Source: Pachysolen tannophilus NRRL Y-2460
Taxonomy: Eukaryota
DNA length: 64,000 nucleotides
Assembly (NCBI GenBank): GCA_001661245.1
Contig: KV454017.1
Span: 1 to 64,000, forward strand
Direction of reading: 5' to 3'
Within the stretch, counting starts at the first letter, position 1. Every line of letters begins with the position of its first letter. Below the pieces are notes generated by a model, which did no database searches, was not told the DNA's origin, and saw only the letters and a list, made by a program, of their open reading frames with translations. Below are positions 13,037 through 45,200 of this stretch, in pieces. A program made the translations under genes and the position numbers.

Positions 13037-13307
13037 NNNNNNNNNNNNNNNNNNNNNNNNNNNNNNNNNNNNNNNNNNNNNNNNNNNNNNNNNNNNNNNN
13101 NNNNNNNNNNNNNNNNNNNNNNNNNNNNNNNNNNNNNNNNNNNNNNNNNNNNNNNNNNNNNNNNNNNNNNNNNNNNNNNNNNNNNNNNNNNNNNNNNNNN
13201 NNNNNNNNNNNNNNNNNNNNNNNNNNNNNNNNNNNNNNNNNNNNNNNNNNNNNNNNNNNNNNNNNNNNNNNNNNNNNNNNNNNNNNNNNNNNNNNNNNNN
13301 ATATTAT

Positions 13308-13696: not shown

Positions 13697-14143
13697 TTAA
13701 TTTTGATCATCAGGTCTTCCAGCTGCTTGTGTTTCCTTCATTAACTCATATAACTATATATTAAAATAAGAAATGTTAGTTTTCAATTAGTTTTTTTATT
13801 ATATAGTTTTTTTTAAAAAAATACTTACTTGACCAATTTGATCAGGACTCATTTTATCTAAATCTTCTTTTTTCAATCTATGCTCCAACCAATTTCCTCC
13901 TTTTATAACACCAAGATACCCTTGCCATTCTGTTAAAAACCCAATTATATGTAATGGATTCTCTGTATCTTTATGAGCTTTAAATTCCAGACGAACATAT
14001 GCATCTCCTAATGCTCTTTGTGGACCAGGTAACACTCTATGAGCTCTTAAAATTTCTCGAAATAATTTTAATGGCGGGTATAATTGTGGAGTATCACGTA
14101 TAGGACGACGTGGTCTAACAAAACATACTAAACTCGATCTCAT
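13697..14143 (-). CDS. SDH7: Succinate dehydrogenase assembly factor 3 (LYR family), 2 exons: 14143-13829 and 13753-13697
   Basis: LYPPLKLFREILRAHR.LP..QRALGD.YV..EFKAHK...NPLHIIGFLTEWQ.Y. A 75-nt phase-0 intron has a GTAAGT donor (13828), an ACTAAC branch point (13780-13775) and a TAG acceptor (13754). Splicing restores the conserved QIGQ|LYELM. Confidence 0.92.
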
Positions 14144-15210
14144 CTTCTTTTTTTTTTTTTTGGCTCTTTTTCCCTCCAATAAAACTTGATTGATTCAATC
14201 TTAAAAAAAAAATTTCTTTTACCAAAATTATTTACAGATTTCTTACTAATATAATTCAATAGGATTGGTTAGTTATAGTTGGTTTTTGGGCCTTTTTTCG
14301 CCTTATTTTTTGAGTGATTTCTTAATTAAAATTTTTTATGTGAAAAAAAGAAAAATCACATACTAATTCCCAAAACGGAATGTTGGATTTACACTGCACT
14401 ACTGTTTCCTTCCGGCTATAGCGGCAGATAATTACGTAATGATTTTTTTTTTGTGTGTCTCGGAAATACTTTCCTAATTAGGAAAGGCTTTTTTGTTTTC
14501 TATTCAATTAGAAACCAACCAACCAACAATAATAACTCTACAAAAGAATTAATGATGATAATATAGATAAAGAAAAGAGTTAGTTTGGTTAAGTTTATTT
14601 TTCTTTGAATTAACAATTTATAAATTGAAATTTATTTTTTTTTTCTTTTTTTTTTTTGCGTTTTTTTTCATTTTTAAAACTAAAAACAAGATGTGGATTT
14701 ATTGGTTTAAACCCAAGGTAATTTTTTTTTTCTTTTGGCCTTTTTTTTTTCATATGAATAGCTTCCAATAAGCACGGAAAGACTTCTTCATGTCTTTGTT
14801 CCTGAGAAAATAATAATAAAAAAAATAAAATAAAAAATAAAAAAAATAAAAAAAAATAAAAAAAAAAATGCAAAAGATTTAAAAAATTTCTTTCTTTATA
14901 TCAAAAGGCTCTCTTTATACAAAATATACCCATGTAGCGTTATTTTCATTAGGTTCATTCTTACCAATATTATTTTGAATGCTTTTTTTTGTTTTTTTTT
15001 TTTTTGGTTTTTCCATATTTTTTTATGTGTTTTTAAGTGATTTATATTAATTAGTCTTTTTCAGGTCCTTTTTTTTTTGATTATTCATTTTTTCCTATTA
15101 TTTTTCAAAAACTGTACAACTTTTTATTATTTTATAATTGGTTTTCTTTTTTTTTGGACTTTTTGGCTTTTTGGCTTTTTGGCTTTTTGGCTATATATAT
15201 ATTTTTTTTT

Positions 15211-18162: not shown

Positions 18163-20796
18163 TCATGAGTCTTTTGCTGAATTGTCAGTTTTCTGCTTTT
18201 TGCTTTTGTTTTCTGTTTTCATTGAAACATATCTTGCCAAATAATATTGCGTAGTCTTATCAAAGGCCAGGGACACAGATTGCTCATTTTGTGTTGAACC
18301 TTTGATTATTAAGTTTTTATTCATTTTATTCTTATTGTTTTGAGTTTTCAATTTATTAAGTCCAAACTTATTAACTAATTTTTCATCGTTTAAAATATCA
18401 AAACCTAATTTCTTACGTAATTGAGCCTTCTTTGTTAACGACCAATCAATTAATATCTCTTTGAAACTAAAACCAAGTCTTTCAAGTTCACTGATACACC
18501 AATATATGATGGAACTTTCATGTTGTGTAGTATTCTTTTGCAAAATGGCTTGATCAGCAATCATCTTAATAATAAATTTTTTCAAATTTGTAGGAATAAA
18601 TAATTGAACTTTATCATATCTTTGAGCAAAAGGATTACTTATATCTCTTAAATTCATTTCATTTTTGAAAAAAATTGATTTATCACTAATTGAATTCATA
18701 TAAACTTCTTTTGAATACTCCAAAGGATGGTTTTTCAAAAGAAATTTGAAATATGATGTTGTAAACCAATTCCAAACTTCATCTCTATAATCTATACTTT
18801 GAGTCATCTTACAAAACATCAAATTTATCTTATAAAAATCAACAACATTATGTTCAATCATATAATCTAATATAGTAATAAATAAAGATTTGGAAACATA
18901 TGGTGAAACAGTTTGAAACATTTTCCAAACTTTTTCAAATTCAATTTTTCTATTTCCTAATCCTGTATTATATAACATTGATCTGCAAATTAAATTTAAT
19001 TCAACATGACTTAACCCTTTTGGATATCTTTCATAAATTAATTTAACAATTTTTTCAACACCTTCAGAATCTTGAAATTTTAAATGTAATGCTAATAAGG
19101 CAGATAATTGACCTCTAGTAAGATGAGTAACATATGAATAATTTAAAGATTCTAATTCAGAATTTGAATCTTTATTTAATTCTGCAATTAAAACTTCAGA
19201 TAATTTAAAATCAGAAGTTCTAGAAGAATGAAATAATAAAGCATCCATTAAATCTGGATTAACTAAACAAGATCTAATAGGTAAATCTGCTATAAGTTCA
19301 CTAACCAAATACCTATATCTTTGATTTTTACTGAAAAATCTAATCATCTTAGCTAATATTGAATAATAATAATATTCATTATCAGCATTATTATTTACAC
19401 TATTCATTTGTGAATTATATTTAACAGTATGAAGTTTTTTAATTCTTGACCAAATCAAATAAACAACAGGTTCATTATTATAGGCAATATTATGCTCAAT
19501 TAATTTATATGTATATCTTAAATATAAATCTAGTTGATTATTATGAAGTACAGCATCTTGATCATCATTAGATTTAATAGTGAAATTATGGAAATAAATA
19601 TCTAAAATTTTTCTAAAAATTTCTGTTTTCAAATTGAGATAAACATCGTCATCCAATATTAATGTATTTTCTATTACAGTTGATAATTGGGAAGGTGATA
19701 ATTTAAATTTAAAATCATTTAAATTAAAAGACAGATCTTTTCCCTCTTTTTTCTTATTATTAATACTCAGTGAAACATTATCCAACATTTCATTTTGAAA
19801 TTCATGTAATTTAATAATTGTTATAATTTGTTTATCATCTTGTAAAGGAGATTTAATCAATAAAGATTGAATGATTAAATTTAATATTTCTTTATTCAAT
19901 AATATATAATTGACAAAATTTGGACTTGAACTTTCATAATGCTTAATAATATCAATATAAAGAGCCGATGCTAATAAAGCATTTTTAGAAATTAATGAAC
20001 AATAAATTAAAAATCTGAAAAACTCATATTGTATACCATATGGAATACTTGAAGAGTTAATTTCTTTTAAAGGTAATTCCAATTTTTGAGATCTAACAAT
20101 TTGTATCACATGTGAATCAATTTTTTTCAATATTTCATTATTAAAATTTAATAAATTATCAATAATATAATGCACCTCATTATAATTTAAAAATAAAGAG
20201 TTGTAACTACCAAACATTAAATCACTCAATATTTTTAATAATATTATCTTTATAGATGAATTAAATTTAAATAAAAAACACAACATTTTCATCAATTGAT
20301 AACTTTGATCACTATATCCCATTTTAATTAATCTAATAAATATGGATTCATTATTAACTTTGGTTAAAATTATTTTGGAATTTGAATTTATAAAATTAAT
20401 ACAATCTCTTCGTACTTGTAACTGCTGTAAATTTTTCATCATAGATTTTGAATTTTCAAATGATAATAAAAATGATACCACAATATCTATATGAGAATTC
20501 TCCTCATTTACTTGAATCTGATCAAACTCACTTGAACTATTCTTCTCTTTCACATTATTAGAATCCCAACTAAGTGGCTTGGGTATATTAACAACCGGTC
20601 CTTGCTTCTTTGAAGTACTAATACCATCATCACCAGAATTCGAATTTTCTAAATTATTCAAAACCAAAAATTTCTGATACATACAAGCAGAAATTGTCAA
20701 AGATCGTATTGCCTCAACAGGTATTGCACCAATCCGTACTGTACCAATCCGTATGATCCCAAGCCTACTTCGGCTTATATGCTTCAAAATTATCAT
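18163..20796 (-). CDS. Mitochondrial helical-repeat (PPR-like) protein, probable Cbp1 ortholog
   Basis: 877-aa ORF with an Arg-rich presequence-like N-terminus and helical composition. It is divergent from NUC1, the position CBP1 holds in S. cerevisiae (CBP1-NUC1-LAA1). The identity rests on synteny only. Confidence 0.5.
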   Translation of the reverse strand: MIILKHISRSRLGIIRIGTVRIGAIPVEAIRSLTISACMYQKFLVLNNLENSNSGDDGISTSKKQGPVVNIPKPLSWDSNNVKEKNSSSEFDQIQVNEENSHIDIVVSFLLSFENSKSMMKNLQQLQVRRDCINFINSNSKIILTKVNNESIFIRLIKMGYSDQSYQLMKMLCFLFKFNSSIKIILLKILSDLMFGSYNSLFLNYNEVHYIIDNLLNFNNEILKKIDSHVIQIVRSQKLELPLKEINSSSIPYGIQYEFFRFLIYCSLISKNALLASALYIDIIKHYESSSPNFVNYILLNKEILNLIIQSLLIKSPLQDDKQIITIIKLHEFQNEMLDNVSLSINNKKKEGKDLSFNLNDFKFKLSPSQLSTVIENTLILDDDVYLNLKTEIFRKILDIYFHNFTIKSNDDQDAVLHNNQLDLYLRYTYKLIEHNIAYNNEPVVYLIWSRIKKLHTVKYNSQMNSVNNNADNEYYYYSILAKMIRFFSKNQRYRYLVSELIADLPIRSCLVNPDLMDALLFHSSRTSDFKLSEVLIAELNKDSNSELESLNYSYVTHLTRGQLSALLALHLKFQDSEGVEKIVKLIYERYPKGLSHVELNLICRSMLYNTGLGNRKIEFEKVWKMFQTVSPYVSKSLFITILDYMIEHNVVDFYKINLMFCKMTQSIDYRDEVWNWFTTSYFKFLLKNHPLEYSKEVYMNSISDKSIFFKNEMNLRDISNPFAQRYDKVQLFIPTNLKKFIIKMIADQAILQKNTTQHESSIIYWCISELERLGFSFKEILIDWSLTKKAQLRKKLGFDILNDEKLVNKFGLNKLKTQNNKNKMNKNLIIKGSTQNEQSVSLAFDKTTQYYLARYVSMKTENKSKKQKTDNSAKDS

Positions 20797-32564: not shown

Positions 32565-32891
32565 TTACTCTTTGGAAGAGTTTTCAATTGCTTTTAATAA
32601 AGTATTTAAAGCTTCTAAATTATCTCTGTTGGAATTTGAAACACTAATAACGTTACTATTGACTAAACGATGAATAGTAGCATCTAAATTGAATTTTTTA
32701 GTAGCAGCAGAAGAATTAGAATCTTTAAAAGATGGAGAAGACAATGTAGTACCCACTGATGAAGCTGAAGAAGGTGATCTCGAGAATAATGAAGGAATTT
32801 TCAGAGTTTCTTCATTTGATGGTGAAGAAGAATCTTCAACATTTGAATCTTGTTGTAATTCATTCAACTCGTTAATTAACTTTAATTGGCC
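32565..32891 (-). CDS. +1-frame continuation of the Zn2Cys6 gene (108 aa), probably joined by ribosomal frameshifting
   Basis: Overlaps the upstream ORF end and has the same Ser-rich, protein-like composition. It is entered exactly by a +1 shift at GCG-AGG-C (32895-32889). Confidence 0.6.
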   Translation of the reverse strand, partial: GQLKLINELNELQQDSNVEDSSSPSNEETLKIPSLFSRSPSSASSVGTTLSSPSFKDSNSSAATKKFNLDATIHRLVNSNVISVSNSNRDNLEALNTLLKAIENSSKE

Positions 32892-34377
32892 TCGCATTTA
32901 GATCCATATTTACAGAATCCGAGATTTCATCAATACTTGGTAAAGTTGAAGGAGTTGTAGATATATTTTTATCACCGGCCATTGCCAACACAGAAGATGC
33001 ACTTGGAGAAGATGTGCTTGAATTATCCACAATACCATTATTATCAGTGTTGTCAATTAGAATCGGTGGAATATTTTCAATTGGGGTCATCATTGGAGAA
33101 TTATCATTATTGTTAATGAGAATCTCGGCAGCACCAATAATCGCACCACTAACGGTGGCTGCTGATGATGCTTCTGCTGCTGCTAATGCTGCTGCTGATG
33201 ATGATGCCGATGCAACTGCGGTAGCTGCAGTGGCTGTGGTGGCTGCAGAAACAGAATTGGTAGTTGTATAATTGGATGAACCGCCATGATCAAACGATAC
33301 TTTTGGTGATGGAATTGGTGTTGTCATGCCGTTTGTACTTAACAATGTTGGTGAAATTGTATCACAAATTACCTCATGGTCAAGCTCATGTCCTTGACCA
33401 TGGTCAAGACCATGATCAAGGCCATGATCGAGCCTATGATCAAGCCCAAGTTCGCGATCATGATCATGGTCGTGATCACGATCACGGTCACGATCACGAT
33501 CGTTACCATGATTATGACCACGATTATGATCTTCATCGTCATCATCTTCGTAATCATCTTCATAGTCATCTTCGTCTTCATCATCATATTCATCTTCACT
33601 TGAATTGTTAAAGCTCATGATACCATGTAATTGATCATAATCCAAATTTTCTACATCAACCAAACCATCAACTTTTAAACCTTTATTTATAGCTAATTCT
33701 CTTAACATTTTATCTTTAATAATTAAATTTCCTACAATTATTTTTAATTCCATAACTGAATCATTTAATTCTCTAATAACATTTGATCTTTTTGTTGGAA
33801 TAACAATTTCAAATTCACATTTTAAACCTTTTTTCAAACATGAATGACAACTTTCTGGTTGAGAATCAATATAATTACATTTCGTCTTATGTTTACGACA
33901 TCTAGTACAACTTTTCAAAATTCTTGGTTTTGGTTGATCTGATGATAATAAATGATCAGGAATTTTAAAATCTTGAGGATTTGAAGTAATTGTTAAAATA
34001 TTTTTTGAACCACCTATACTAGAATTATTATTATTAACTGTATTTGTATTTGTAGAATTTGAACTTGTGAAAACACTTGCAAATTTTTTTTTCGAAATCT
34101 TTTTATTATTATTATGGCACAGCAGCAATTTTCTCTTTTTTGGTATATGATTACCATCATTTAAAATTTCCTTTTTAATATTAATTTCAGGTGTAATAGA
34201 ATATGGGGGTAACTGACTTGAAATCATTGTTGTTGCTGATGTTAATGGTACTGCTTGAACCGCTGAAGTTATTGGTACCATTGGTACCATTGGTACCAGT
34301 TGATGATTAACCGCCAATGTCTTTTTATTGGTAGGTTTAGGTAATATATTTGGTAAAATCTTTCTATTTTGCGTCAT
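32872..34377 (-). CDS. Zn(II)2Cys6 transcription factor (Sef1-like cluster plus coiled coil, no MHR domain), 0-frame product 501 aa
   Basis: SCTRCRKHKTKC...PESCHSCLKKGLKC followed by a heptad segment, then acidic, D/H-repeat and Ala/Ser-rich tracts. Confidence 0.88.
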   Translation of the reverse strand: MTQNRKILPNILPKPTNKKTLAVNHQLVPMVPMVPITSAVQAVPLTSATTMISSQLPPYSITPEINIKKEILNDGNHIPKKRKLLLCHNNNKKISKKKFASVFTSSNSTNTNTVNNNNSSIGGSKNILTITSNPQDFKIPDHLLSSDQPKPRILKSCTRCRKHKTKCNYIDSQPESCHSCLKKGLKCEFEIVIPTKRSNVIRELNDSVMELKIIVGNLIIKDKMLRELAINKGLKVDGLVDVENLDYDQLHGIMSFNNSSEDEYDDEDEDDYEDDYEDDDDEDHNRGHNHGNDRDRDRDRDHDHDHDRELGLDHRLDHGLDHGLDHGQGHELDHEVICDTISPTLLSTNGMTTPIPSPKVSFDHGGSSNYTTTNSVSAATTATAATAVASASSSAAALAAAEASSAATVSGAIIGAAEILINNNDNSPMMTPIENIPPILIDNTDNNGIVDNSSTSSPSASSVLAMAGDKNISTTPSTLPSIDEISDSVNMDLNARPIKVN

Positions 34378-35878
34378 TATAATAAAACTTCAAAAGATGT
34401 TTCAGCAACAACAAATTGCAAAAAATAAATAATTATAAATACCTATATAAATAAATAAATAGAATAAATATATATATATAAATACGTACGTACGTAATTA
34501 AGATTTAATAATATAAATCTCCTTCATATATATATAAAATATATATATAAGATATATATAATATTATATATGATGAAAGCGGGTATTTATGTTGGTCTAA
34601 AAGTCAAATAAGACTAATAAGCACATCTACATAAACTAAATTAGAAAACTGTTGCAAAGTTAATTATTACTTTTTCATTTTTTTTTTTCCACGCGGTCAA
34701 TCCATCCCTTTTTGAAAAGATCAACAATTAAATCAAATCAAATTAACTTTTTATAACACTTGTGACACTTGTTAAACTAGGAATAAAGCAATTACAAGAA
34801 TTTACAAGCTATGTACGAATTACAAATAAAAGACCTTCTCAGTTAATGAATGAATGAATTGTTTAAACTGATATTACCTTGGTGGTTAGTTTTTTTTTTT
34901 TTTAAAAAGAAAAAAGAAAAAAGAAAAAGAAAAAGATTTTCTTTTTCATGTAGGTTAATAAGAATTAAAAGAACTGGGGAAGTATTACATTTATTATAAG
35001 TTGTAATTGAACTTATTCTATTGGATAATTTATAAAAGATGCTCTGTATCTGCGTCTTTTGCTCATCTTTACAATTGCCGAACTAACCCCTGTTTTATTG
35101 GAAAAATTATGCATATTTTTCCCAGTTTATAAGGTTAACAAAAAAAAAACCAAAAAACCAAAAAAAACCTATAACTCAACTATAACTCAACTATCATTAG
35201 ACAGATTTTTCCAATCACTAGTTCTGTTGTTGGTGCTCTACTCCATCTATAAAATTTAAACCAAAAAAAATGATATTCTTTTTATTCTTTTTGTTCTTTT
35301 GTTCTTTTCTTTGATTTTTAGTACTTAATTTAAGGTTCTGCGAGATTTTTTTTAGTATATTTTAAACCGACCACAAACACAAAGAAACAAAGAAACAAAG
35401 AAACAAAGAGAAAAAAAAAAAAAAAAAAAAGCCGCAAATGAAATAACATAAAAGGGAAACCCCGTTTTTCGGGTTTGGGGCCGTACTATGTGAGAATGGG
35501 AATTGTACTAGTGTGCTTATTTTTGTTTGCACGGGAAATAATTGAAATAAAAAAAAGTATTAAAAAAACTTGTTAATATTGGGAACCAAATTAAAAAAAT
35601 TTCAATTGCGAAATGACAGATGAAAAATTTTTGATTCGAACTAAGGATAAATTGAATTAGCGAGAAACGGAAAATAAGAAAGTAAGACAAATAAAAGAGG
35701 GCGCTGGCGAGTCTAACTATAAGCACCAGCGCCCTTGTTATATCTCGTTACTACATACACTTGACGCCCGACACCAAGAAAAATAAAAAATAAACATCGT
35801 ACACCATCTGCACCACTTGCACCACAAGTGGTGCAAGTGGTGTGAGGTGGACCTCTTCACACGTTTTTCCTTTTTTTT

Positions 35879-36325
35879 TTAATTCTTTTTTACAATCCAA
35901 TCATTCAATCCATACCTATTTCTACAAATCTCAATAGCATAAAACTGTAAACGCAAGACAAATATTGTTCCTTCTTGATCATATTCACCATCAGAACTTA
36001 TTCTCATCAATGTACCAAAATTATAATCTTCAATTTTTTTCTCAAATAATTTTAAATAATTTCTCCATTTATTTTTGGCAACATTATTCTTTAAATCATT
36101 TTCATTAATAACTTTAACATAATTTGGATCTTCAAATTCAGGAAAATGTTTAATTAATTCATCAAAAATTTCATCATCATAACTTGTTAATTTAAGCCTT
36201 GATCCAGGAATTTTACTAATTAATTTCCAATACGTTTCAGCTTGTTCCACAGCAACAACTGCAAATTGTTTTTCAATATCTTCAGAATTCTCAGCTGTCT
36301 CTGCGTTAAACGTACTCAATGACAT
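35879..36325 (-). CDS. PBDC1/YPL225W family protein (eEF1A chaperone Chp1)
   Basis: FNAETAENSEDIEKQFAVVAV, LKLT..DDEI, KWR...F...IEDYNFGTL, RLQFYAIEICRNR.GLND. Adjacent to the MMT gene as in S. cerevisiae. RRPE-like site near 36413-36423. Confidence 0.92.
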   Translation of the reverse strand: MSLSTFNAETAENSEDIEKQFAVVAVEQAETYWKLISKIPGSRLKLTSYDDEIFDELIKHFPEFEDPNYVKVINENDLKNNVAKNKWRNYLKLFEKKIEDYNFGTLMRISSDGEYDQEGTIFVLRLQFYAIEICRNRYGLNDWIVKKN

Positions 36326-36555
36326 TTTCAATTCTACGGGAAACTACTACTTAAATCACAATTTTGATGTTTGATTTTACAGGTTTTCTTTTAAAAACTA
36401 AGAATAAAAATAAAAATTTTTCAATTTAAAAAAAAATTAATCACTTTCTTTTTGGTTGAAATTTACACTAAAAACAAATTATTATAAGTCTATATAGATA
36501 GATAGATAGATAGATAGATAGATGATAAATTTCATTTTTGTTCATTGATTCATGA

Positions 36556-38241
36556 TTATTTTTGGTCTGATTCAACTAAGTTTTTGCCTCCTTCAAATTC
36601 AATATTAATTTTTTTCAAATTTGGGTATTCTTTAGTTAAACCTTGTTTAACTTTTGAAATAATATAACCTATTCTTTCTATAGTAATTTCTTTTTCATAT
36701 GAAGAATTATATTTATTAATATTCAAAGTTAAACATGCATTTAAATTTGCACCTGAAGGCATTAATGTTAAATCTTTTAATAAAAAATTTCTATCATTTT
36801 CCATAAGTAAGACATTAACCTTATTTTCAAAATCTGTATACCTTGGATCATCTTTTAAAATCAGTTTATCAATTAATTCTTTCCAAGCTTGAACAACACC
36901 ACTAACACCAACTTTAACAATCAAGACAGAAACCAATAATCCACCAACAGAATCTAACCAGTAGATGTTACAATAATAGCCAGCTGATATGGTAACTAGG
37001 GCAACAAATGATGTAAGAGAATCAACTCTATGATGCCAGGCATTTGCAATTAATACTTTTGAATTTTGAGTTTCACCAATTTTCTTTGTTACTCTAAATA
37101 ACCATTCTTTAACAAATATAGAACCTAAAGCAATCCAAGCAGCGTTAATATCAGCAACTTCATTTATTATACCAGTATTAGCTCCACCATTATCATGATC
37201 ATGATCATGGTCATGGCTCTGACCTTGAACTTGACCTGAAGAAATAACATCTGTAGCTGTTGATACTGTTGTTGGAGTTGTATGAACATGAGAATGAGAA
37301 TGAGCAGGAAGTAAACTTGTGAAAAAATCCATAACGTTATGAGGTAATAATGGAGTTAAAACATCTAATAATGAAGCCCAACCTATTTGTATACCAGCAT
37401 ATAATAATATTAAAGATACAAATAATGAACCAATAGTTTCAATTTTACCAAATCCAAAGGGATAAGCATCAATAGGTTTTTGTGCTGCACTATTTACTGT
37501 AGCTAAAGTTAAAATATCAGAAATTGTATCACTTACCGAATGAACTGCATCAGCCAATAAGGCTTGAGAATGGAAATAAACTCCACTAACACCTTTTGTA
37601 GCAGCCATCAGGATATTAACAGCCAACCCAATTAAAGTGATTTTAACACCTGGATTCGAACGGAATTCTGATGTGTCATATAATTTCAATTCTTGAACAG
37701 AATGGGCTCCATGAGTATGAGAATGACCATGATGATGATCATCATCATCATGGTCAGCATCAGAAGCATCTGCACCATTATTGGCATCACCATTTTTATC
37801 ATTTTTTTTACCTGATTTCAGTTTATATAAATGCTTTATTGGATCAATAAGAGGAACATGAGGATTGAAAAAATCTTTAGTCTTTGTCCAAAAATTCTCC
37901 TTCTTCTTGTTCAATTCAATTTCAAAATCTTCACCATCTAAATCCAAATTATCCAATTCTGGAATACCTGTATTTAACCGATTTTTTTTTAAACCACCAC
38001 CTTCTGACTTTGTATCAAGTGTACTACTACTATGAGAATGTGAATGAGAATGAGAATGTGAATTTAAATCTGTATCATGAGAATGTGAATGTCTCAACAC
38101 AAGATATTGTGAAAATTGTTTTTCAAATTGAAATTGAAATTGAAATTCAAATCGTCTCCCAATAAAATTTTTTTGAACATTATTATAATTGATCAAACTT
38201 AACCTCGATAAAGTTGAAAAATTGCTTCTAGCTATTATCAT
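36556..38241 (-). CDS. MMT2: Mitochondrial cation diffusion facilitator (Mmt1/Mmt2 iron exporter) with His-rich loops
   Basis: SQALLADAVHSVSD, YPFGFGKIE, KEWLFR, LIANAWHHRVDSLTS, plus a mitochondrial presequence. Confidence 0.88.
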   Translation of the reverse strand: MIIARSNFSTLSRLSLINYNNVQKNFIGRRFEFQFQFQFEKQFSQYLVLRHSHSHDTDLNSHSHSHSHSHSSSTLDTKSEGGGLKKNRLNTGIPELDNLDLDGEDFEIELNKKKENFWTKTKDFFNPHVPLIDPIKHLYKLKSGKKNDKNGDANNGADASDADHDDDDHHHGHSHTHGAHSVQELKLYDTSEFRSNPGVKITLIGLAVNILMAATKGVSGVYFHSQALLADAVHSVSDTISDILTLATVNSAAQKPIDAYPFGFGKIETIGSLFVSLILLYAGIQIGWASLLDVLTPLLPHNVMDFFTSLLPAHSHSHVHTTPTTVSTATDVISSGQVQGQSHDHDHDHDNGGANTGIINEVADINAAWIALGSIFVKEWLFRVTKKIGETQNSKVLIANAWHHRVDSLTSFVALVTISAGYYCNIYWLDSVGGLLVSVLIVKVGVSGVVQAWKELIDKLILKDDPRYTDFENKVNVLLMENDRNFLLKDLTLMPSGANLNACLTLNINKYNSSYEKEITIERIGYIISKVKQGLTKEYPNLKKINIEFEGGKNLVESDQK

Positions 38242-39625: not shown

Positions 39626-41656
39626 TTAAATCATCTGTAACAGCTGGAAAGTAGCTGGTTCAAAAGCTTGAAACTCTATATTATTACCTCCGCAGTTGTT
39701 GCCACCAATTGGTAAATCAAGAAAATTATCTGATGATGACGAAAAATTCAAATCTGCTCTAGTAGTATCGAGCGAGAAAGCATCATTGTCACCAAAAAAT
39801 TTTTGATCAAACTGTAGTCCGCTGCTATTATTAATGTTGTTATTACTATTATTATTGTTGCTGTTGCTGCTGTTATTAGTATTAGTATTATTATTATCAT
39901 TAGTATTGGTACTGGCAATGCTGAAATTTGGGTTAAAGATCGAAGCATCATCACTTATTGGTAAGTTCATTGTATTTTTACTATCCTTGATGTCATCACA
40001 AGTTTGTCCCATTGCATTATCATTTAAATTAAAATATGCAGATGGTTGGAAAAAATCCCAATTTTCAAGATCATTCAAGTCATATTTAAAATAATTGGCA
40101 TCTGCATCAGAAACTGCTCTTCTATGGTTTTTCTGAAATGTAAATGGGAACCCAGAATCTTCTCTAAGAGATGGCTGATTCTGCAGCAGAAGGGTATTTG
40201 CGTTCAACAAATCTGCTGGTAAAAAGCCACTTGAAGGAGTTGTGGATAAGCCATTAGTTGAATAATTACCATTTTGTGGACCAACTGTATTGGCATTACT
40301 ATTCAATAACGAATCAACAATAAATTGTTCACGAGCTGTAGCCTGTGGATTGTTACCAGCGTTGTTGAGCAACATTCCATTATTTGAAACATCATTAAAT
40401 TGAAAATTATTGCTGCTGTTACTGTTGCCATTTTTGTTATAGGTAAAATTGTCACCAAGAGCTTGTGGAGATTCCAAGAAATTAATAACATTCGTACCTG
40501 TAGTATAGTTACTAACTGGAACCATTGGTGAATTCAAATAACCATCATTCAACGATAATACAGAAGCACTTGAAGGTGGTGTGCTCAAATTGTTGCCATT
40601 ATCTTCACCACTTGAAGAAACTTGGGAGCTTGTACTAGAGTGATGGTGTTGAGGTACCAGGGTACTTAAATGTTTACTATTATCCTCTGGTTCAGTTTTT
40701 GGTTGAACTTGACGATTGCCAATATAGAAAACATCTTCTTTAAATGTAGTTGGTTCTGGAGGAGAGCTTGTTGGATTTGCAATGGAAATAGACAAGCAAA
40801 TAGCCTTCTTCGTTGAGAAATTACCATTTTGATCATAATATTTTTTAATATATTCCCAGCACTTATCACCATAAGATTTAGGAGTCAATCCTGTGACACT
40901 TTTGAAAACACGGTGAAAATGCCATGGTGATAATTTTGATTTTGAAGCCAACTCTTTAAAACCCAATACCCCGCCTCTTCTTCTCCTCTTCTTATTCGAG
41001 CCATTACCAGCACCATCAGCCTTTTCCTGTTGCTCCAACTGTTGTTTAGACTTGACCTTCTCCTCATTCAACTTTAGCGCTGTGGAAGCAGCAGCCAAAG
41101 CAATGTGGCGACAAGCCAAATCAACCAACCGAACATGATCAGACTCGTTTTTAGAAATACCGCTCTTTTCCAGGTCAGCCGCACCAGCACCAACAGCACC
41201 CAACCCTCCTGGTCCGCCACCAAGGCCGCCGCCGCCGCCGCCGTGGACGGCCGGGGCAGAGTTACGCCTAAGTTTTGATTTCTTCAATACATTTTCTCTA
41301 ATAGCATTACTCTCCATATCATCATCCGACAATGGTGGGATGAACCCAATTTTGGAATTAATAGCACATACAGTTTCAACCAATACATCGATATCAACAG
41401 TTATAACCTTATCATTGTTTTCTCCATTAACCTCAGAGATCAAACAGTGATCACACTTCTTGAACCCCATTTTTAAAGCATCCTCAACATCATCCACAAA
41501 TAAAACTTCAGACTTCAAGTTTGTCTGCAAGCCCATGTCACAATTGGGGCGGCAGCAAACTTTTGTGGACTTATTGCACACAATAAACTTATCAGCGGCA
41601 AATGGATCATTAAATTGGTATGCATTCCATTTCAGTATATCCGATATATAACTCAT
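39626..41656 (-). CDS. Ada-type Zn-binding (methylphosphotriester methyltransferase-like) domain + AraC-type HTH + Asn/Ser-rich tail; putative transcription regulator
   Basis: KWNAYQFNDPFAADKFIVCNKSTKVCCRPNC...GFKKCDHC matches the Ada N-domain (CRPxC...CxxC). ELASKSKLSPWHFHRVFKSVTGLTPKSY matches the AraC HTH. NLS-like KKRRRR. First ATG is at 41656. Confidence 0.85.
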   Translation of the reverse strand: MSYISDILKWNAYQFNDPFAADKFIVCNKSTKVCCRPNCDMGLQTNLKSEVLFVDDVEDALKMGFKKCDHCLISEVNGENNDKVITVDIDVLVETVCAINSKIGFIPPLSDDDMESNAIRENVLKKSKLRRNSAPAVHGGGGGGLGGGPGGLGAVGAGAADLEKSGISKNESDHVRLVDLACRHIALAAASTALKLNEEKVKSKQQLEQQEKADGAGNGSNKKRRRRGGVLGFKELASKSKLSPWHFHRVFKSVTGLTPKSYGDKCWEYIKKYYDQNGNFSTKKAICLSISIANPTSSPPEPTTFKEDVFYIGNRQVQPKTEPEDNSKHLSTLVPQHHHSSTSSQVSSSGEDNGNNLSTPPSSASVLSLNDGYLNSPMVPVSNYTTGTNVINFLESPQALGDNFTYNKNGNSNSSNNFQFNDVSNNGMLLNNAGNNPQATAREQFIVDSLLNSNANTVGPQNGNYSTNGLSTTPSSGFLPADLLNANTLLLQNQPSLREDSGFPFTFQKNHRRAVSDADANYFKYDLNDLENWDFFQPSAYFNLNDNAMGQTCDDIKDSKNTMNLPISDDASIFNPNFSIASTNTNDNNNTNTNNSSNSNNNNSNNNINNSSGLQFDQKFFGDNDAFSLDTTRADLNFSSSSDNFLDLPIGGNNCGGNNIEFQAFEPATFQLLQMI

Positions 41657-41905
41657 AATCAATATATATATTTTTTGATTTTATTAAACAATTAAAGTTA
41701 ACTCAAGTTGAGTAAAGTCTCTAACAAAAATAAATAATAATAATAATAATAATAATAAATTAATATAAATAATATAAAATCGGATAAAGTGGGCTAATCT
41801 AACTAAATTGTCTAAGATATAAAAAAACCAACTTTAAAAATAATTAATATACTTTTTATTGAAATGAATCAGAAAAAAAAAAAAAAAAAATTTTATAAAT
41901 TAAAA

Positions 41906-42289
41906 NNNNNNNNNNNNNNNNNNNNNNNNNNNNNNNNNNNNNNNNNNNNNNNNNNNNNNNNNNNNNNNNNNNNNNNNNNNNNNNNNNNNNNNNNNNNNNN
42001 NNNNNNNNNNNNNNNNNNNNNNNNNNNNNNNNNNNNNNNNNNNNNNNNNNNNNNNNNNNNNNNNNNNNNNNNNNNNNNNNNNNNNNNNNNNNNNNNNNNN
42101 NNNNNNNNNNNNNNNNNNNNNNNNNNNNNNNNNNNNNNNNNNNNNNNNNNNNNNNNNNNNNNNNNNNNNNNNNNNNNNNNNNNNNNNNNNNNNNNNNNNN
42201 NNNNNNNNNNNNNNNNNNNNNNNNNNNNNNNNNNNNNNNNNNNNNNNNNNNNNNNNNNNNNNNNNNNNNNNNNNNNNNNNNNNNNNNNN
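41906..42289. other. Assembly gap flanked by a near-identical ~55-bp sequence
   Basis: tactttttattgaaatgaatcag(A)n occurs at 41850 and again at 42290. Confidence 0.9.
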
Positions 42290-45200
42290 TACTTTTTATT
42301 GAAATGAATCAGAAAAAAAAAAAAAAAAAATTTTAATAAATTAAAAAATAAATTATTTAAATATATATATATATATAAATAATACTCATAATGAGGAGTG
42401 CATGGATCTTTTTTTATTCAATTTTCTCTAATTAACAATTAAAAAAAAGAGATGATGAGTTTTAAGAAAAGTGTGTTGTGTTGTCTTGTATTGTTTTCTA
42501 TTAGAAAAAAGTACAAGAAAAGACAAAGTTCGATGATGTAAAAATGCAAGTCGATAAATAAATACGTAACATTGCATAAACTCTGATTATCATGTATGCT
42601 ATGCATGTCATGCATACTCTATAAAACCCTAAAGTTTAAGTGAGAAGTGACAACTTTTAACGAGACAGAGAGAAAGGAAGAAGAAGAAGAAAAAGAATAT
42701 GTCTATTAGTTTGAATAGAAGAATGTTTGGAAGCTTTTGATGGCTATGATTAAAATTTTGACTTTAGATTGTTTTTTTTATAATAGAAGCAATTTTAAAA
42801 AAAAAAAAATAAAAGAACACAAAGACAACAAAAACAATTAAAGAAGGAGGTAAATAAAGGGATTGAATAATTAATAATACTAATATTTTTTTGTAGAAAT
42901 ACAGTAGAAAAAGAAAGCAAAAAAAAAAGTTTTTGATGAGTGTTTACGTTTACGGAAGAGTGACCCATTACTTTACCCACTTTAAGACCCACTATTTTTT
43001 TTTTTTGATTAATTGAGTATTTCATTAATGTTTTAACGAGAAATTAGACATAACCTTGTTTTAATTTTTTTAATTTTTTCGAGTAAAACCTGGAATTTAT
43101 TAGGCAATAATGCATTTTTATTTTTATTTTTCATTTCCCGTACGAGACAGGACAGGATTATAACTTTCGTCAACAGACATACTTATTTTTTTTTTCTTTC
43201 TCTTTCTTTCTATTTAAGCAAAAACGGATTTAACAAGTTAAGTAAATTTTGTCTTTTTTTTTTTTTTTAATTTATTATGAAAAACCCAGAAACCTAGAAA
43301 TTAAAAAAAGAGATATTAATTTCTATTTGTTTCCACGTATTATTACGTTAACTTTAGACTGCATAGAACTCTTTATCTATTGCATGAAAAAATAAGAATT
43401 TTAAAAATTAATTTGATTAATAATTAAAGGGTATCAGCGGTATAGCCTCAGTGCATATCATATAATTGTAATTCTGCATATTTACTTCAAACAAAGAGGT
43501 TTAATACCTAGTTGAAAGATTTCTAGAAAAAAAAAAAATAAAATAAAATAAAAAAATCTTTTGTCTATTTCTAGACTCCCCTCTTCCCCACCTCAACTTT
43601 TCATCTTCATTTCAATGTTCAATGTTCAAAAAAATTCAAATTTTAAACCTTAACTCTATAAACAATAAAAAGGATTTAATAAATCAAGAAAAAAGAATTA
43701 TATTCAAATTTATTTTCCGCATCACTTAAGGTATCAAACTATTAAATACTTAATAGAAATATGTATTATAACTTAAAGAATTTTTTTTTTTTTTTTTTGG
43801 GGTTTTACAACTTCTGTGAGCGAACTCGCTAAATAAAAGAATAAGTTTAATTTTTTAATGCCTTTTAACTTATCATAAAGCTTATCATTACGCCAAGATA
43901 GTTTTGTAAATTTTTTTGATCATTTTATTAAACATAAAAAAAAAAAAAAACAAACCTAAGAGCATAGCTATTATAGATAGTTTTTATTTTTCTTTTCATG
44001 AATAGTAGTAAAGTAATACGTGTTTGAAATTTACTTACTTACCCACTGCACAGTTTCTTAGCTCAATTATGTTTATGTTTAGCAAATTCGCAGCCAGATG
44101 GGGGGAGGAGGTACCTTATAATATACATAGCTCATATGGCTTATATAGCTTATATAACTTTTATAAGTCATATAACATACTAACTTACTGTCATCATATA
44201 CACATTTTAGCTTAACAAGTATTCACACAAACTGTTTTTCTTTGTTTGTCAGTCTTATTTCTCTTTATGTGTAACAAAGTGTAACAAAAGATTTAACAAA
44301 AAGCAGGTCTTATTACCTAATTGGGGACGAACAAGGTAAACTTAATTCCGTTTGGTCCGCCCAATTTAGGAAATGATGAATCATCCGCCAAGTACGTTCG
44401 GCAATTTAAACTTGAAATTAAGTTTACCTTTTCATCTATTATTAGAAAGATGTCTTTCCTTGAACTTTTTTTTAGTTAAAAAGTTTGATAAGACAATTAT
44501 GTAATAGCACACATACCGAATCGCATCAGAAACCTGCATAATCAATCAGTCATCTCTATTGAATATATTGTTCTGGAAAGAGAGGACAAAATATTTACCA
44601 AATTTTTTTTTTTTTTTACAACAAGTCTAAATCGGCTAATCAATTATCCAAAGAAGGTACCTTGAAGTGATTTCATTCTTACCGCATCAAAAGCAAAATT
44701 GCATATATGTTTAGTCATATTTTCGATTTTCTTTTTCAGTTCTTTTTTTTTTTTGTTTTATTATGAAATTAATCCAGTTCACCTAACCCCTCAAATTGAT
44801 TAAATTGGTTACCGCCCACCGGTATTTTCTGTCATCAATTAAACTACTTTTCCATCTTTTCCATCTTTTCCATCTTTTCCATTATTTTTCACTTTTCTGT
44901 TTCTTTTGTTATATTTGGCTTACACTACTACGTTCCTTTGTTTTGTTCCACCTTTGTTGTTTCAACAATAAGCTCTTTTTGTTCTGGAAAAACCTTATAT
45001 CAAATTTTCTATTATGCGAGATGAATATAAACTATTATATAAGACTAGCAAACAACCCCCCACTACACAAACACCGGACGGCCACTAATGTCGGTTCGGT
45101 TAGTATGAATACATAAAAATACTACATGAATACATGAATAGTTCGGCCTAACACGGTGCGTAGTGTTACACATCACTCTTACATGGAATAGATGGAATTG

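Follow-up and report, generated by a model that had tools for sequence, protein, structure and literature searches.

Chromosomal genes that are decoded by a +1 ribosomal frameshift are very rare in yeasts, and recent reports name ABP140, EST3, OAZ1, YFS1 and LLP1 in Saccharomyces cerevisiae and one gene in Kluyveromyces marxianus (PMC12661321; PMC12719033; bioRxiv 10.1101/2022.03.25.485750). Two types of mechanism are described for yeast +1 shifts; in the GCG type, represented by Ty3 and OAZ1, a near-cognate alanine tRNA sits in the ribosomal P-site and the +1 codon is decoded directly (PMC12661321; PMC5009743). The A-site sequence AGG-C is reported to work in Ty1 owing to a scarcity of tRNA-Arg(CCU) and an abundance of tRNA-Gly(GCC). 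GCG_AGG_C is given as the likely shift site of the K. marxianus gene KLMX_30357, where the density of +1-frame ribosomes rises, and the same preprint credits Sundararajan 1999 with its activity in S. cerevisiae (bioRxiv 10.1101/2022.03.25.485750). Here we describe this heptamer in a Zn2Cys6 transcription factor gene of the yeast Pachysolen tannophilus NRRL Y-2460, located in the first 64,000 nucleotides (nt) of contig KV454017.1 (assembly GCA_001661245.1), a stretch that we call the window. We put at roughly 0.6 the probability that its two overlapping reading frames belong to a single gene that is read by programmed +1 ribosomal frameshifting.

A zinc-cluster gene and its open +1 frame

The gene lies on the minus strand. 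Its 0-frame open reading frame (ORF; 34377..32872) has 501 codons and a TAA stop (32874-32872), and it encodes, in order, an N-terminal region, the zinc cluster, a coiled-coil-like stretch and a long D/E/H- and A/S-rich low-complexity region. The ORF ends AAT GCG AGG CCA ATT AAA GTT AAT TAA. GCG (32895-32893) and AGG (32892-32890) are codons 495 and 496, and a C follows them. The candidate shift heptamer GCG-AGG-C thus occupies 32895..32889 (minus strand); GCG is the P-site codon, AGG the A-site codon and GGC the +1 codon. The +1-frame extension (32891..32565, minus strand) is open for 108 codons before a TAA (32567-32565), and it would encode a disordered linker rich in serine and threonine, followed by a conserved C-terminal module. 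A shifted product would therefore have 495+108 = 603 amino acids. The two frames overlap for only 26 nt (32872..32897), between a +1-frame TAA at 32900-32898 and the 0-frame TAA, and the +1 reading of this overlap is MRGQLKL. An ATG at 32897 stands directly after the upstream +1-frame stop, and read from there the +1 frame is an ORF of 110 amino acids that is open to the TAA at 32567-32565. Two overlapping ORFs that both have coding character, a short overlap, and inside it a heptamer that joins a shift-prone P-site codon to a presumably slow A-site codon are what a yeast +1 site consists of. The preliminary description of this DNA had placed the 501-codon ORF, GCG codon 495 and the 108-codon +1 frame at these positions, and all of them were reproduced from the sequence.

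The assignment to the Zn2Cys6 family is straightforward. The translation of 33808..33912 (minus strand; residues 156-190) contains the binuclear cluster C-x2-C-x6-C-x9-C-x2-C-x6-C, and the same residues match the Pfam family PF00172 (Zn_clus) with an E value of 7.7e-07 and 29.6 bits, above the gathering cut-off of 21. The protein also matches the DNA-binding domain of LEU3 in the PDB (E 8.5e-4).

The +1-frame tail is real coding sequence. A codon model was trained on the 21 other ORFs of the window (14116 codons), and the tail and the 108 codons upstream of the junction were scored with it in three frames. The log-likelihood of the tail is -384.7 in its own frame vs -463.8 and -452.6 off frame; that of the upstream codons is -415.1 vs -483.3 and -482.5, so that the margin is the same on both sides of the junction. 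The tail has no stop codon in its own frame and 9 and 12 stops in the other two. The G+C content is 31-34% all along the tail, and values of 16-18% are reached only downstream of 32565. Taken together, the codon scores, the stop counts and the base composition indicate that coding sequence extends as far as 32565, in the +1 frame. The open +1 frame reaches 102 codons past the 0-frame stop; when the same was measured off frame at the stops of the 21 other ORFs, 42 times in all, no run exceeded 58 codons.

The heptamer requires more care. GCGAGGC is present once in the window, counting both strands, and that copy is the one at the frame overlap. At least one copy was found in 27 of 100 shuffles of the window, and so a single copy is by itself unremarkable. 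Its position is more informative. Because of the +1-frame TAA at 32900-32898, the P-site of a productive +1 shift is limited to nine codons (493-501), and GCG-AGG-C is the third and fourth of these. In the 21 other ORFs, GCG is used 1.56 times and AGG 3.9 times per 1000 codons. From these frequencies an in-frame GCG-AGG-C is expected 7.6e-7 times per codon, or about 7e-6 times over the nine permitted positions. For CTT-AGG-C, CTT-AGT-T, GCG-AGT-T and GCG-AGG-C jointly, the expectation is 7.25e-5 per codon and about 6.5e-4 over the nine positions. According to papers that cite a 1994 codon survey, 11 P-site codons support +1 shifting, and the chance estimate is 1e-3 to 1e-2 if all 11 are admitted. 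All of these figures are partly post hoc because the site was picked for its heptamer. Both of the possible four-letter steps, GCGA and AGGC, recur in frame elsewhere in the zinc-cluster ORF.

If shifting takes place here, as the arrangement of the two frames would suggest, the following sequence of events can be envisaged. Ribosomes would translate the Zn2Cys6 ORF to codon 495, with GCG (Ala) in the P-site, and would pause at the slowly decoded AGG in the A-site. A fraction of them would skip the A at 32892, take up a glycine tRNA at the overlapping GGC and read 108 more codons to give a 603-amino-acid protein with the junction ...MDLNA-GQLKL.... This form would carry the disordered linker and the conserved two-helix module at its C-terminus. 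Ribosomes that remain in frame would stop six codons later and release a 501-amino-acid protein that has the DNA-binding and dimerisation parts without the module. By analogy with S. cerevisiae, we predict that the mechanism would be of the GCG type, without re-pairing in the P-site, combined with the strong A-site AGG-C. AGG is probably slow and GGC probably fast in this yeast. GGT is the main glycine codon (375 of 674 Gly codons), a preference that would be in keeping with plentiful tRNA-Gly(GCC), by which GGC would be read as well. The only tRNA encoded in the window is Leu(UAA).

Relatives of the tail and of the zinc-cluster protein

A phmmer search with the 108 residues of the tail against 1.84 billion representative proteins returned four proteins at E <= 0.001. 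Two of them, P0012 and P0014, are true relatives. P0012 has 79 amino acids (E 1.7e-09) and is a single-member cluster from a Logan assembly, encoded on a contig of 2.7 kb. P0014 has 58 amino acids (E 3.3e-05) and is likewise a single-member cluster, from Logan assemblies, where it is found on 13 contigs, the longest of 70.7 kb. The third match, P0013, was set aside because it is a repetitive protein of 826 amino acids and matches by low complexity; the fourth, P0015, has 3258 amino acids (E 2.9e-4).

In alignment A2, which consists of the window tail, P0012 and P0014, the last 45 or so residues are kept in all three sequences, with the pattern LDAT.H.LV..N.IS..NS..DNLEALN..L.A. This is the conserved C-terminal module, KKFNLDATIHRLVNSNVISVSNSNRDNLEALNTLLKAIENSSKE (32568..32699, minus strand), with two predicted helices. 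Identity to the window sequence is 59-61% for P0012 and 53% for P0014. P0012 begins with MRGQLKL, which agrees in seven of seven residues with the +1 reading of the overlap in the window, and the linker that follows is mostly unalignable and 31 residues shorter than that of the window. The 20 or so nucleotides from the ATG at 32897 onward would thus appear to be constrained, unlike the linker.

A tail that is open and conserved in spite of this divergence, in DNA of 28% G+C, is presumably translated. No fused long form of the tail was found among the phmmer matches in the 1.84 billion representatives, and P0012 and P0014 are both short stand-alone ORFs. A separate ORF in P0012 that starts at the same place and the absence of a fused protein from these matches would imply that at least one other species has the two-frame layout, provided that the ORF caller of the collection takes long ORFs whole. 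These comparisons suggest that both the layout and the region of the shift site have been kept in another species.

Other searches with the tail were negative. Among longer proteins, 0 of 3784 candidates were homologs, and a BLAST comparison with protein P0001 gave only chance matches. In Pfam the tail had only sub-threshold matches, to AFF4_CHD (18.2 bits, cut-off 24) and DUF7438 (16.5 bits, cut-off 25). Searches of metagenome contigs gave 430 pattern matches for a locus based on A2, of which none was confirmed, and no match to the exact 21 nt of the shift site. Neither the 501- nor the 110-amino-acid ORF of the window has an exact copy in the protein collection.

AlphaFold2, run on the three-sequence alignment, predicts a disordered linker and two helices, at residues 63-80 and 90-108 of the 110-amino-acid ORF. 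The mean pLDDT (predicted local distance difference test) is 59, a low confidence overall, and the block means are mostly about 70-80 in the conserved part. A role of the module in activation or in the binding of a partner is a matter of speculation.

The upstream protein has a different and small set of relatives. In a collection of 5.8 billion proteins, the whole 501-residue protein had three matches among 8000 scored candidates and residues 125-250 had nine among 85. The named matches come from Ambrosiozyma, Candida arabinofermentans, Brettanomyces and Pichia; they have 505-872 amino acids and are 50-64% identical to the window protein over the DNA-binding region. Alignment A1 contains eight of the 11 distinct matches, the fragmentary or short models P0002, P0003 and P0004 being excluded. 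The only part of the window gene that is homologous to the Pichiaceae-type orthologs of 700-870 amino acids is 33631..33951 (minus strand; residues 143-249), which encodes the zinc cluster and the following helix. hhalign against A1 aligns these residues only (probability 99.93, E 3.2e-36, 107 columns), and the A1 profile finds one significant domain in the six-frame translation, at 33520-34140, all other hits having i-E >= 0.3. The large C-terminal regulatory domain of about 450 amino acids, which all of the nearest named relatives have (comparison with P0001 and P0004-P0011), is missing from the window gene, and no relic of it is present in any of the six frames of the window. The tail does not resemble A1 either (hhalign probability 0.14).

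Compared with the Pichiaceae-type Zn2Cys6 proteins (P0004-P0011), the window protein has in common an N-terminal KRKLLPLLP-like motif and the zinc cluster with its following helix, and it differs in having a low-complexity region and a frameshifted tail instead of the domain of about 450 amino acids. The window gene could be a short paralog specific to its lineage, or an ortholog that has been remodelled, and a full-length copy elsewhere in the genome is possible. The gene adjoins LAA1 and a NUC1-like nuclease gene, a neighbourhood that we take to be that of S. cerevisiae YJL206C. The literature on YJL206C concerns a hybrid NCE101-YJL206C transcript at the 5' end and has no bearing on the 3' end.

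Residues 260-330 or so of the zinc-cluster protein (about 33380-33600, minus strand) consist of a long acidic stretch, DRDRDRDRDHDHDHD, followed by Asp/His/Arg dipeptide repeats, LDHGLDHGLDHG. This stretch yields spurious long ORFs on both strands, and it is possibly a metal-binding region. Two genes upstream, 36556..38241 encodes a cation-efflux (CDF) transporter. A small ORF of about 150 amino acids at 35879-36343 (minus strand), MSLSTFNAETAENSEDIEKQF..., was missed at the 150-amino-acid ATG threshold and looks like a conserved small protein. The window as a whole is gene-dense, contains yeast-type genes and has a G+C content of 28%.

Alternative explanations

Several observations weigh against a programmed shift at this site, in addition to the post hoc character of the chance figures. 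No stimulatory RNA structure was found around the site (folding z = -0.29). P0014 does not have the MRGQLKL start, and the methionine in column 1 of its row in A2 is an artefact of the alignment. That the heptamer is conserved, and that a zinc-cluster ORF stands upstream of P0012 and P0014, are suppositions drawn from the starts of these two proteins only. The upstream ORFs of the relatives were absent from searches of proteins of 275-877 amino acids, a range that shorter ones would escape. Without the large C-terminal domain of its relatives, the gene could also be read as one in decay. Finally, the Ty1/ABP140 heptamer CTT-AGG-C, of which about 0.07 in-frame sites are expected in 14116 codons, would imply either that AGG-C is tolerated in this yeast or that CUU/AGG-C is little prone to shifting there, since it stands in frame at codon 129 of another gene.

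That other gene is the ORF of 676 amino acids at 39626..41656, which has an Ada-type zinc-binding N-terminus. The heptamer is at 41266-41272 (minus strand), and the next 64 codons of the +1 frame contain no stop, in a glycine-rich stretch. Its presence indicates at least that selection against CUU, or against AGG-C, is not strong in this yeast. A heptamer of the EST3 type, CTT-AGT-T, is present in frame at 20568-20574 (minus strand), codon 75 of the ORF 18163..20796; there the +1 frame is shut after six codons, and the site is probably incidental.

Three other explanations of the two frames have to be considered. The first, which we regard as unlikely, is that the gene was once a single ORF that was broken by a one-base insertion or deletion in 32872-32897, or that the break is an assembly error. 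The cell would then make the truncated 501-amino-acid protein, and the tail would be a relic or be rescued by incidental low-level shifting. The large C-terminal domain of the family has already been lost from this gene, and the two runs of N in the window, at about 13040-13300 (flanked by (TA)n repeats) and about 41905-42295, are assembly gaps or withheld stretches and mark the assembly as a draft. Five of the seven listed sequencing runs contain 0.99 of the 229 words that were sampled, a share in which an insertion or deletion at the site could be concealed because it would cost only about three words. These five come from two studies, and one of them may be the source of this DNA. Four of the five were mapped (X4 was left out), and they give no substitution rows and rows for insertions or deletions only at 34458 and 34462 (in X5). 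Depth is on record for only 7-8 bins out of 30; all four mapped runs cover the bin 32818-32891 and none covers the bin 32892-32965, so that the coverage of the site itself is uncertain.

Against this explanation, the tail retains its full coding signature, with 0 stops vs 9 and 12 in the other frames, and P0012, from a relative diverged to 59-61% identity in the tail, begins at the same residues that the overlap encodes in the window. The short ORF P0014 is found as such on 13 contigs. The conservation of the tail, its separate frame in P0012 and the constraint on some 20 nt at the junction all speak against an error of assembly or a recent insertion or deletion. No single-base run in the overlap is longer than AAA, and a length error from it is unlikely. 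None of the window's other 21 ORFs of 150 or more amino acids is interrupted, and the heptamer would have to stand at the break by chance, with a probability of about 1e-3 or less.

The second explanation, which we consider quite improbable, is that there are two genes, the +1 ORF being an independent small protein (110 amino acids; 79 and 58 in the relatives) with its own ATG at 32897 and its own transcript, overlapping the end of the zinc-cluster gene. The ORFs of the window, P0012 and P0014 were all called with an initial methionine, the ATG directly follows a stop and the first seven residues are kept in P0012, while the adjacency of the relatives' ORFs to a zinc-cluster gene is itself a supposition. 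However, the start codon of P0014 is not at the shared position. The second and third residues (R and G) are encoded by CGA and GGC, which are rare among the codons for these amino acids (17 of 412 for Arg, 40 of 674 for Gly), as would be expected if they are constrained by GCG-AGG-C in the 0 frame. The promoter of such a gene would need to sit within the upstream coding region, and the base composition and codon signature are unbroken across the junction, AT-rich DNA resembling a 3' untranslated region being found only past 32565. In addition, the linker is similar to the S/T/A-rich end of the upstream ORF, and the heptamer would again be coincidental.

The third explanation, an intron that joins the frames, had been raised in the preliminary description as an alternative, and no credible intron was found. 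A relaxed scan for intron signals on the minus strand of 32565-33400 gave no candidate, and no canonical 5' site with a branch point and 3' site joins the frames. When all frame-joining GT-AG pairs of 35-600 nt with a donor from codon 251 onward were considered, only five had a donor within one mismatch of the consensus, and all five have poor signals. Four of these (274-505 nt) were rejected because they would remove at least 90 codons of the stretch that scores as coding. The best is a non-canonical intron of 46 nt, GTAAAT(32913)...AATTAAC-G-AG(32868), whose length is 1 modulo 3 and which contains the branch-point-like AATTAAC; it would fuse ...EISDS to LNELQQ... and no recoding would be needed. 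The window does contain a gene with an intron near its 3' end, the SDHAF3/ACN9-like gene at about 13700..14194, where splicing of the one clear intron of the window (13828-13754, minus strand; 75 nt; GTAAGT...AACTAAC...TAG, with about 20 nt from the branch motif to TAG) restores ...QIGQ-LYELMKETQAAGRPDDQN (LYELMKE...). The 46-nt candidate, however, is much shorter, its donor lacks G at position 5, its branch point is only 4 nt from its 3' end and it would make intronic the MRGQLKL that is kept in P0012, all of which makes splicing very improbable.

Comparison with described +1 shifts

Frameshifting thus remains our preferred reading, and the closest precedent for it is KLMX_30357. The preliminary description had presented the heptamer as a combination of known parts. 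This was correct in that GCG-AGG-C is a recognised +1 site, although its natural use is not new, given the report from K. marxianus. The preliminary description had also stated that no frameshift was known in a zinc-cluster gene; a literature search likewise found none, by title or abstract, among the matches listed. The heptamer and the mechanism are therefore already known, and what is new for +1 recoding is the gene family and, apparently, the clade.

A broader proposal, that a clade of AT-rich budding yeasts outside the Saccharomycetaceae uses a conserved GCG-AGG-C +1 shift in a Zn2Cys6 factor to decide whether the DNA-binding protein carries the two-helix module, is possible but less likely than not. 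Translation would then govern how much active regulator there is relative to a DNA-binding competitor, through the supply of tRNA-Arg(CCU), the choice of the alanine tRNA or polyamines, and the gene would be the first transcription factor under frameshift control to join the few chromosomal +1 recoding genes known in yeasts. That the shift sets a ratio of activator to competitor is a speculation. A further case, from a different gene family and from a yeast with Pichiaceae-type yeasts as its nearest named relatives, would widen the known range of GCG-type shifts that proceed without re-pairing in the P-site, and it could serve as a natural experiment on whether the supply of tRNAs tunes the domain composition of a transcription factor. 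There is also a consequence for annotation, as automatic pipelines would report such a locus as a truncated gene with an orphan ORF, or as a pseudogene.

In KLMX_30357 the heptamer is identical and stands in a chromosomal gene that was formerly read as two ORFs, and the imbalance of tRNA-Arg(CCU) to tRNA-Gly(GCC) that is proposed in that report may apply to the window gene as well. The differences are that KLMX_30357 joins a YLR257W-like ORF to a midasin/AAA-like region and is not a transcription factor, that it belongs to the Saccharomycetaceae whereas the nearest named relatives of the window gene are Pichiaceae-type, and that it is reported with ribosome profiling, whereas the window gene is known from its sequence alone.

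The sites of Ty3 (GCG_AGU_U) and OAZ1 (GCG_UGA_C) have in common with the window gene a P-site GCG that is described as unable to re-pair in the +1 frame (PMC12661321; PMC5009743). They differ in the A-site, which is AGU-U or a stop in these two and AGG-C in the window gene. Ty3 is also reported to require a 3' stimulator; in the window gene about 14 nt 3' of the heptamer are apparently conserved, as judged at the protein level from P0012 only.

The CUU_AGG_C sites of Ty1, ABP140, YFS1 and LLP1 resemble the window site in the other half of the heptamer, the A-site AGG with GGC in the +1 frame. According to the same reports, seven nucleotides may suffice there without RNA structure, and conservation across species was used to identify the site, an argument that is also made here. 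However, the P-site CUU re-pairs to UUA and GCG does not, and these genes are described as being confined to the Saccharomycetaceae. In addition, only the shifted product of ABP140 and of YFS1 is thought to be functional (PMC12661321; PMC12719033), whereas the 0-frame product of the window gene keeps the DNA-binding domain.

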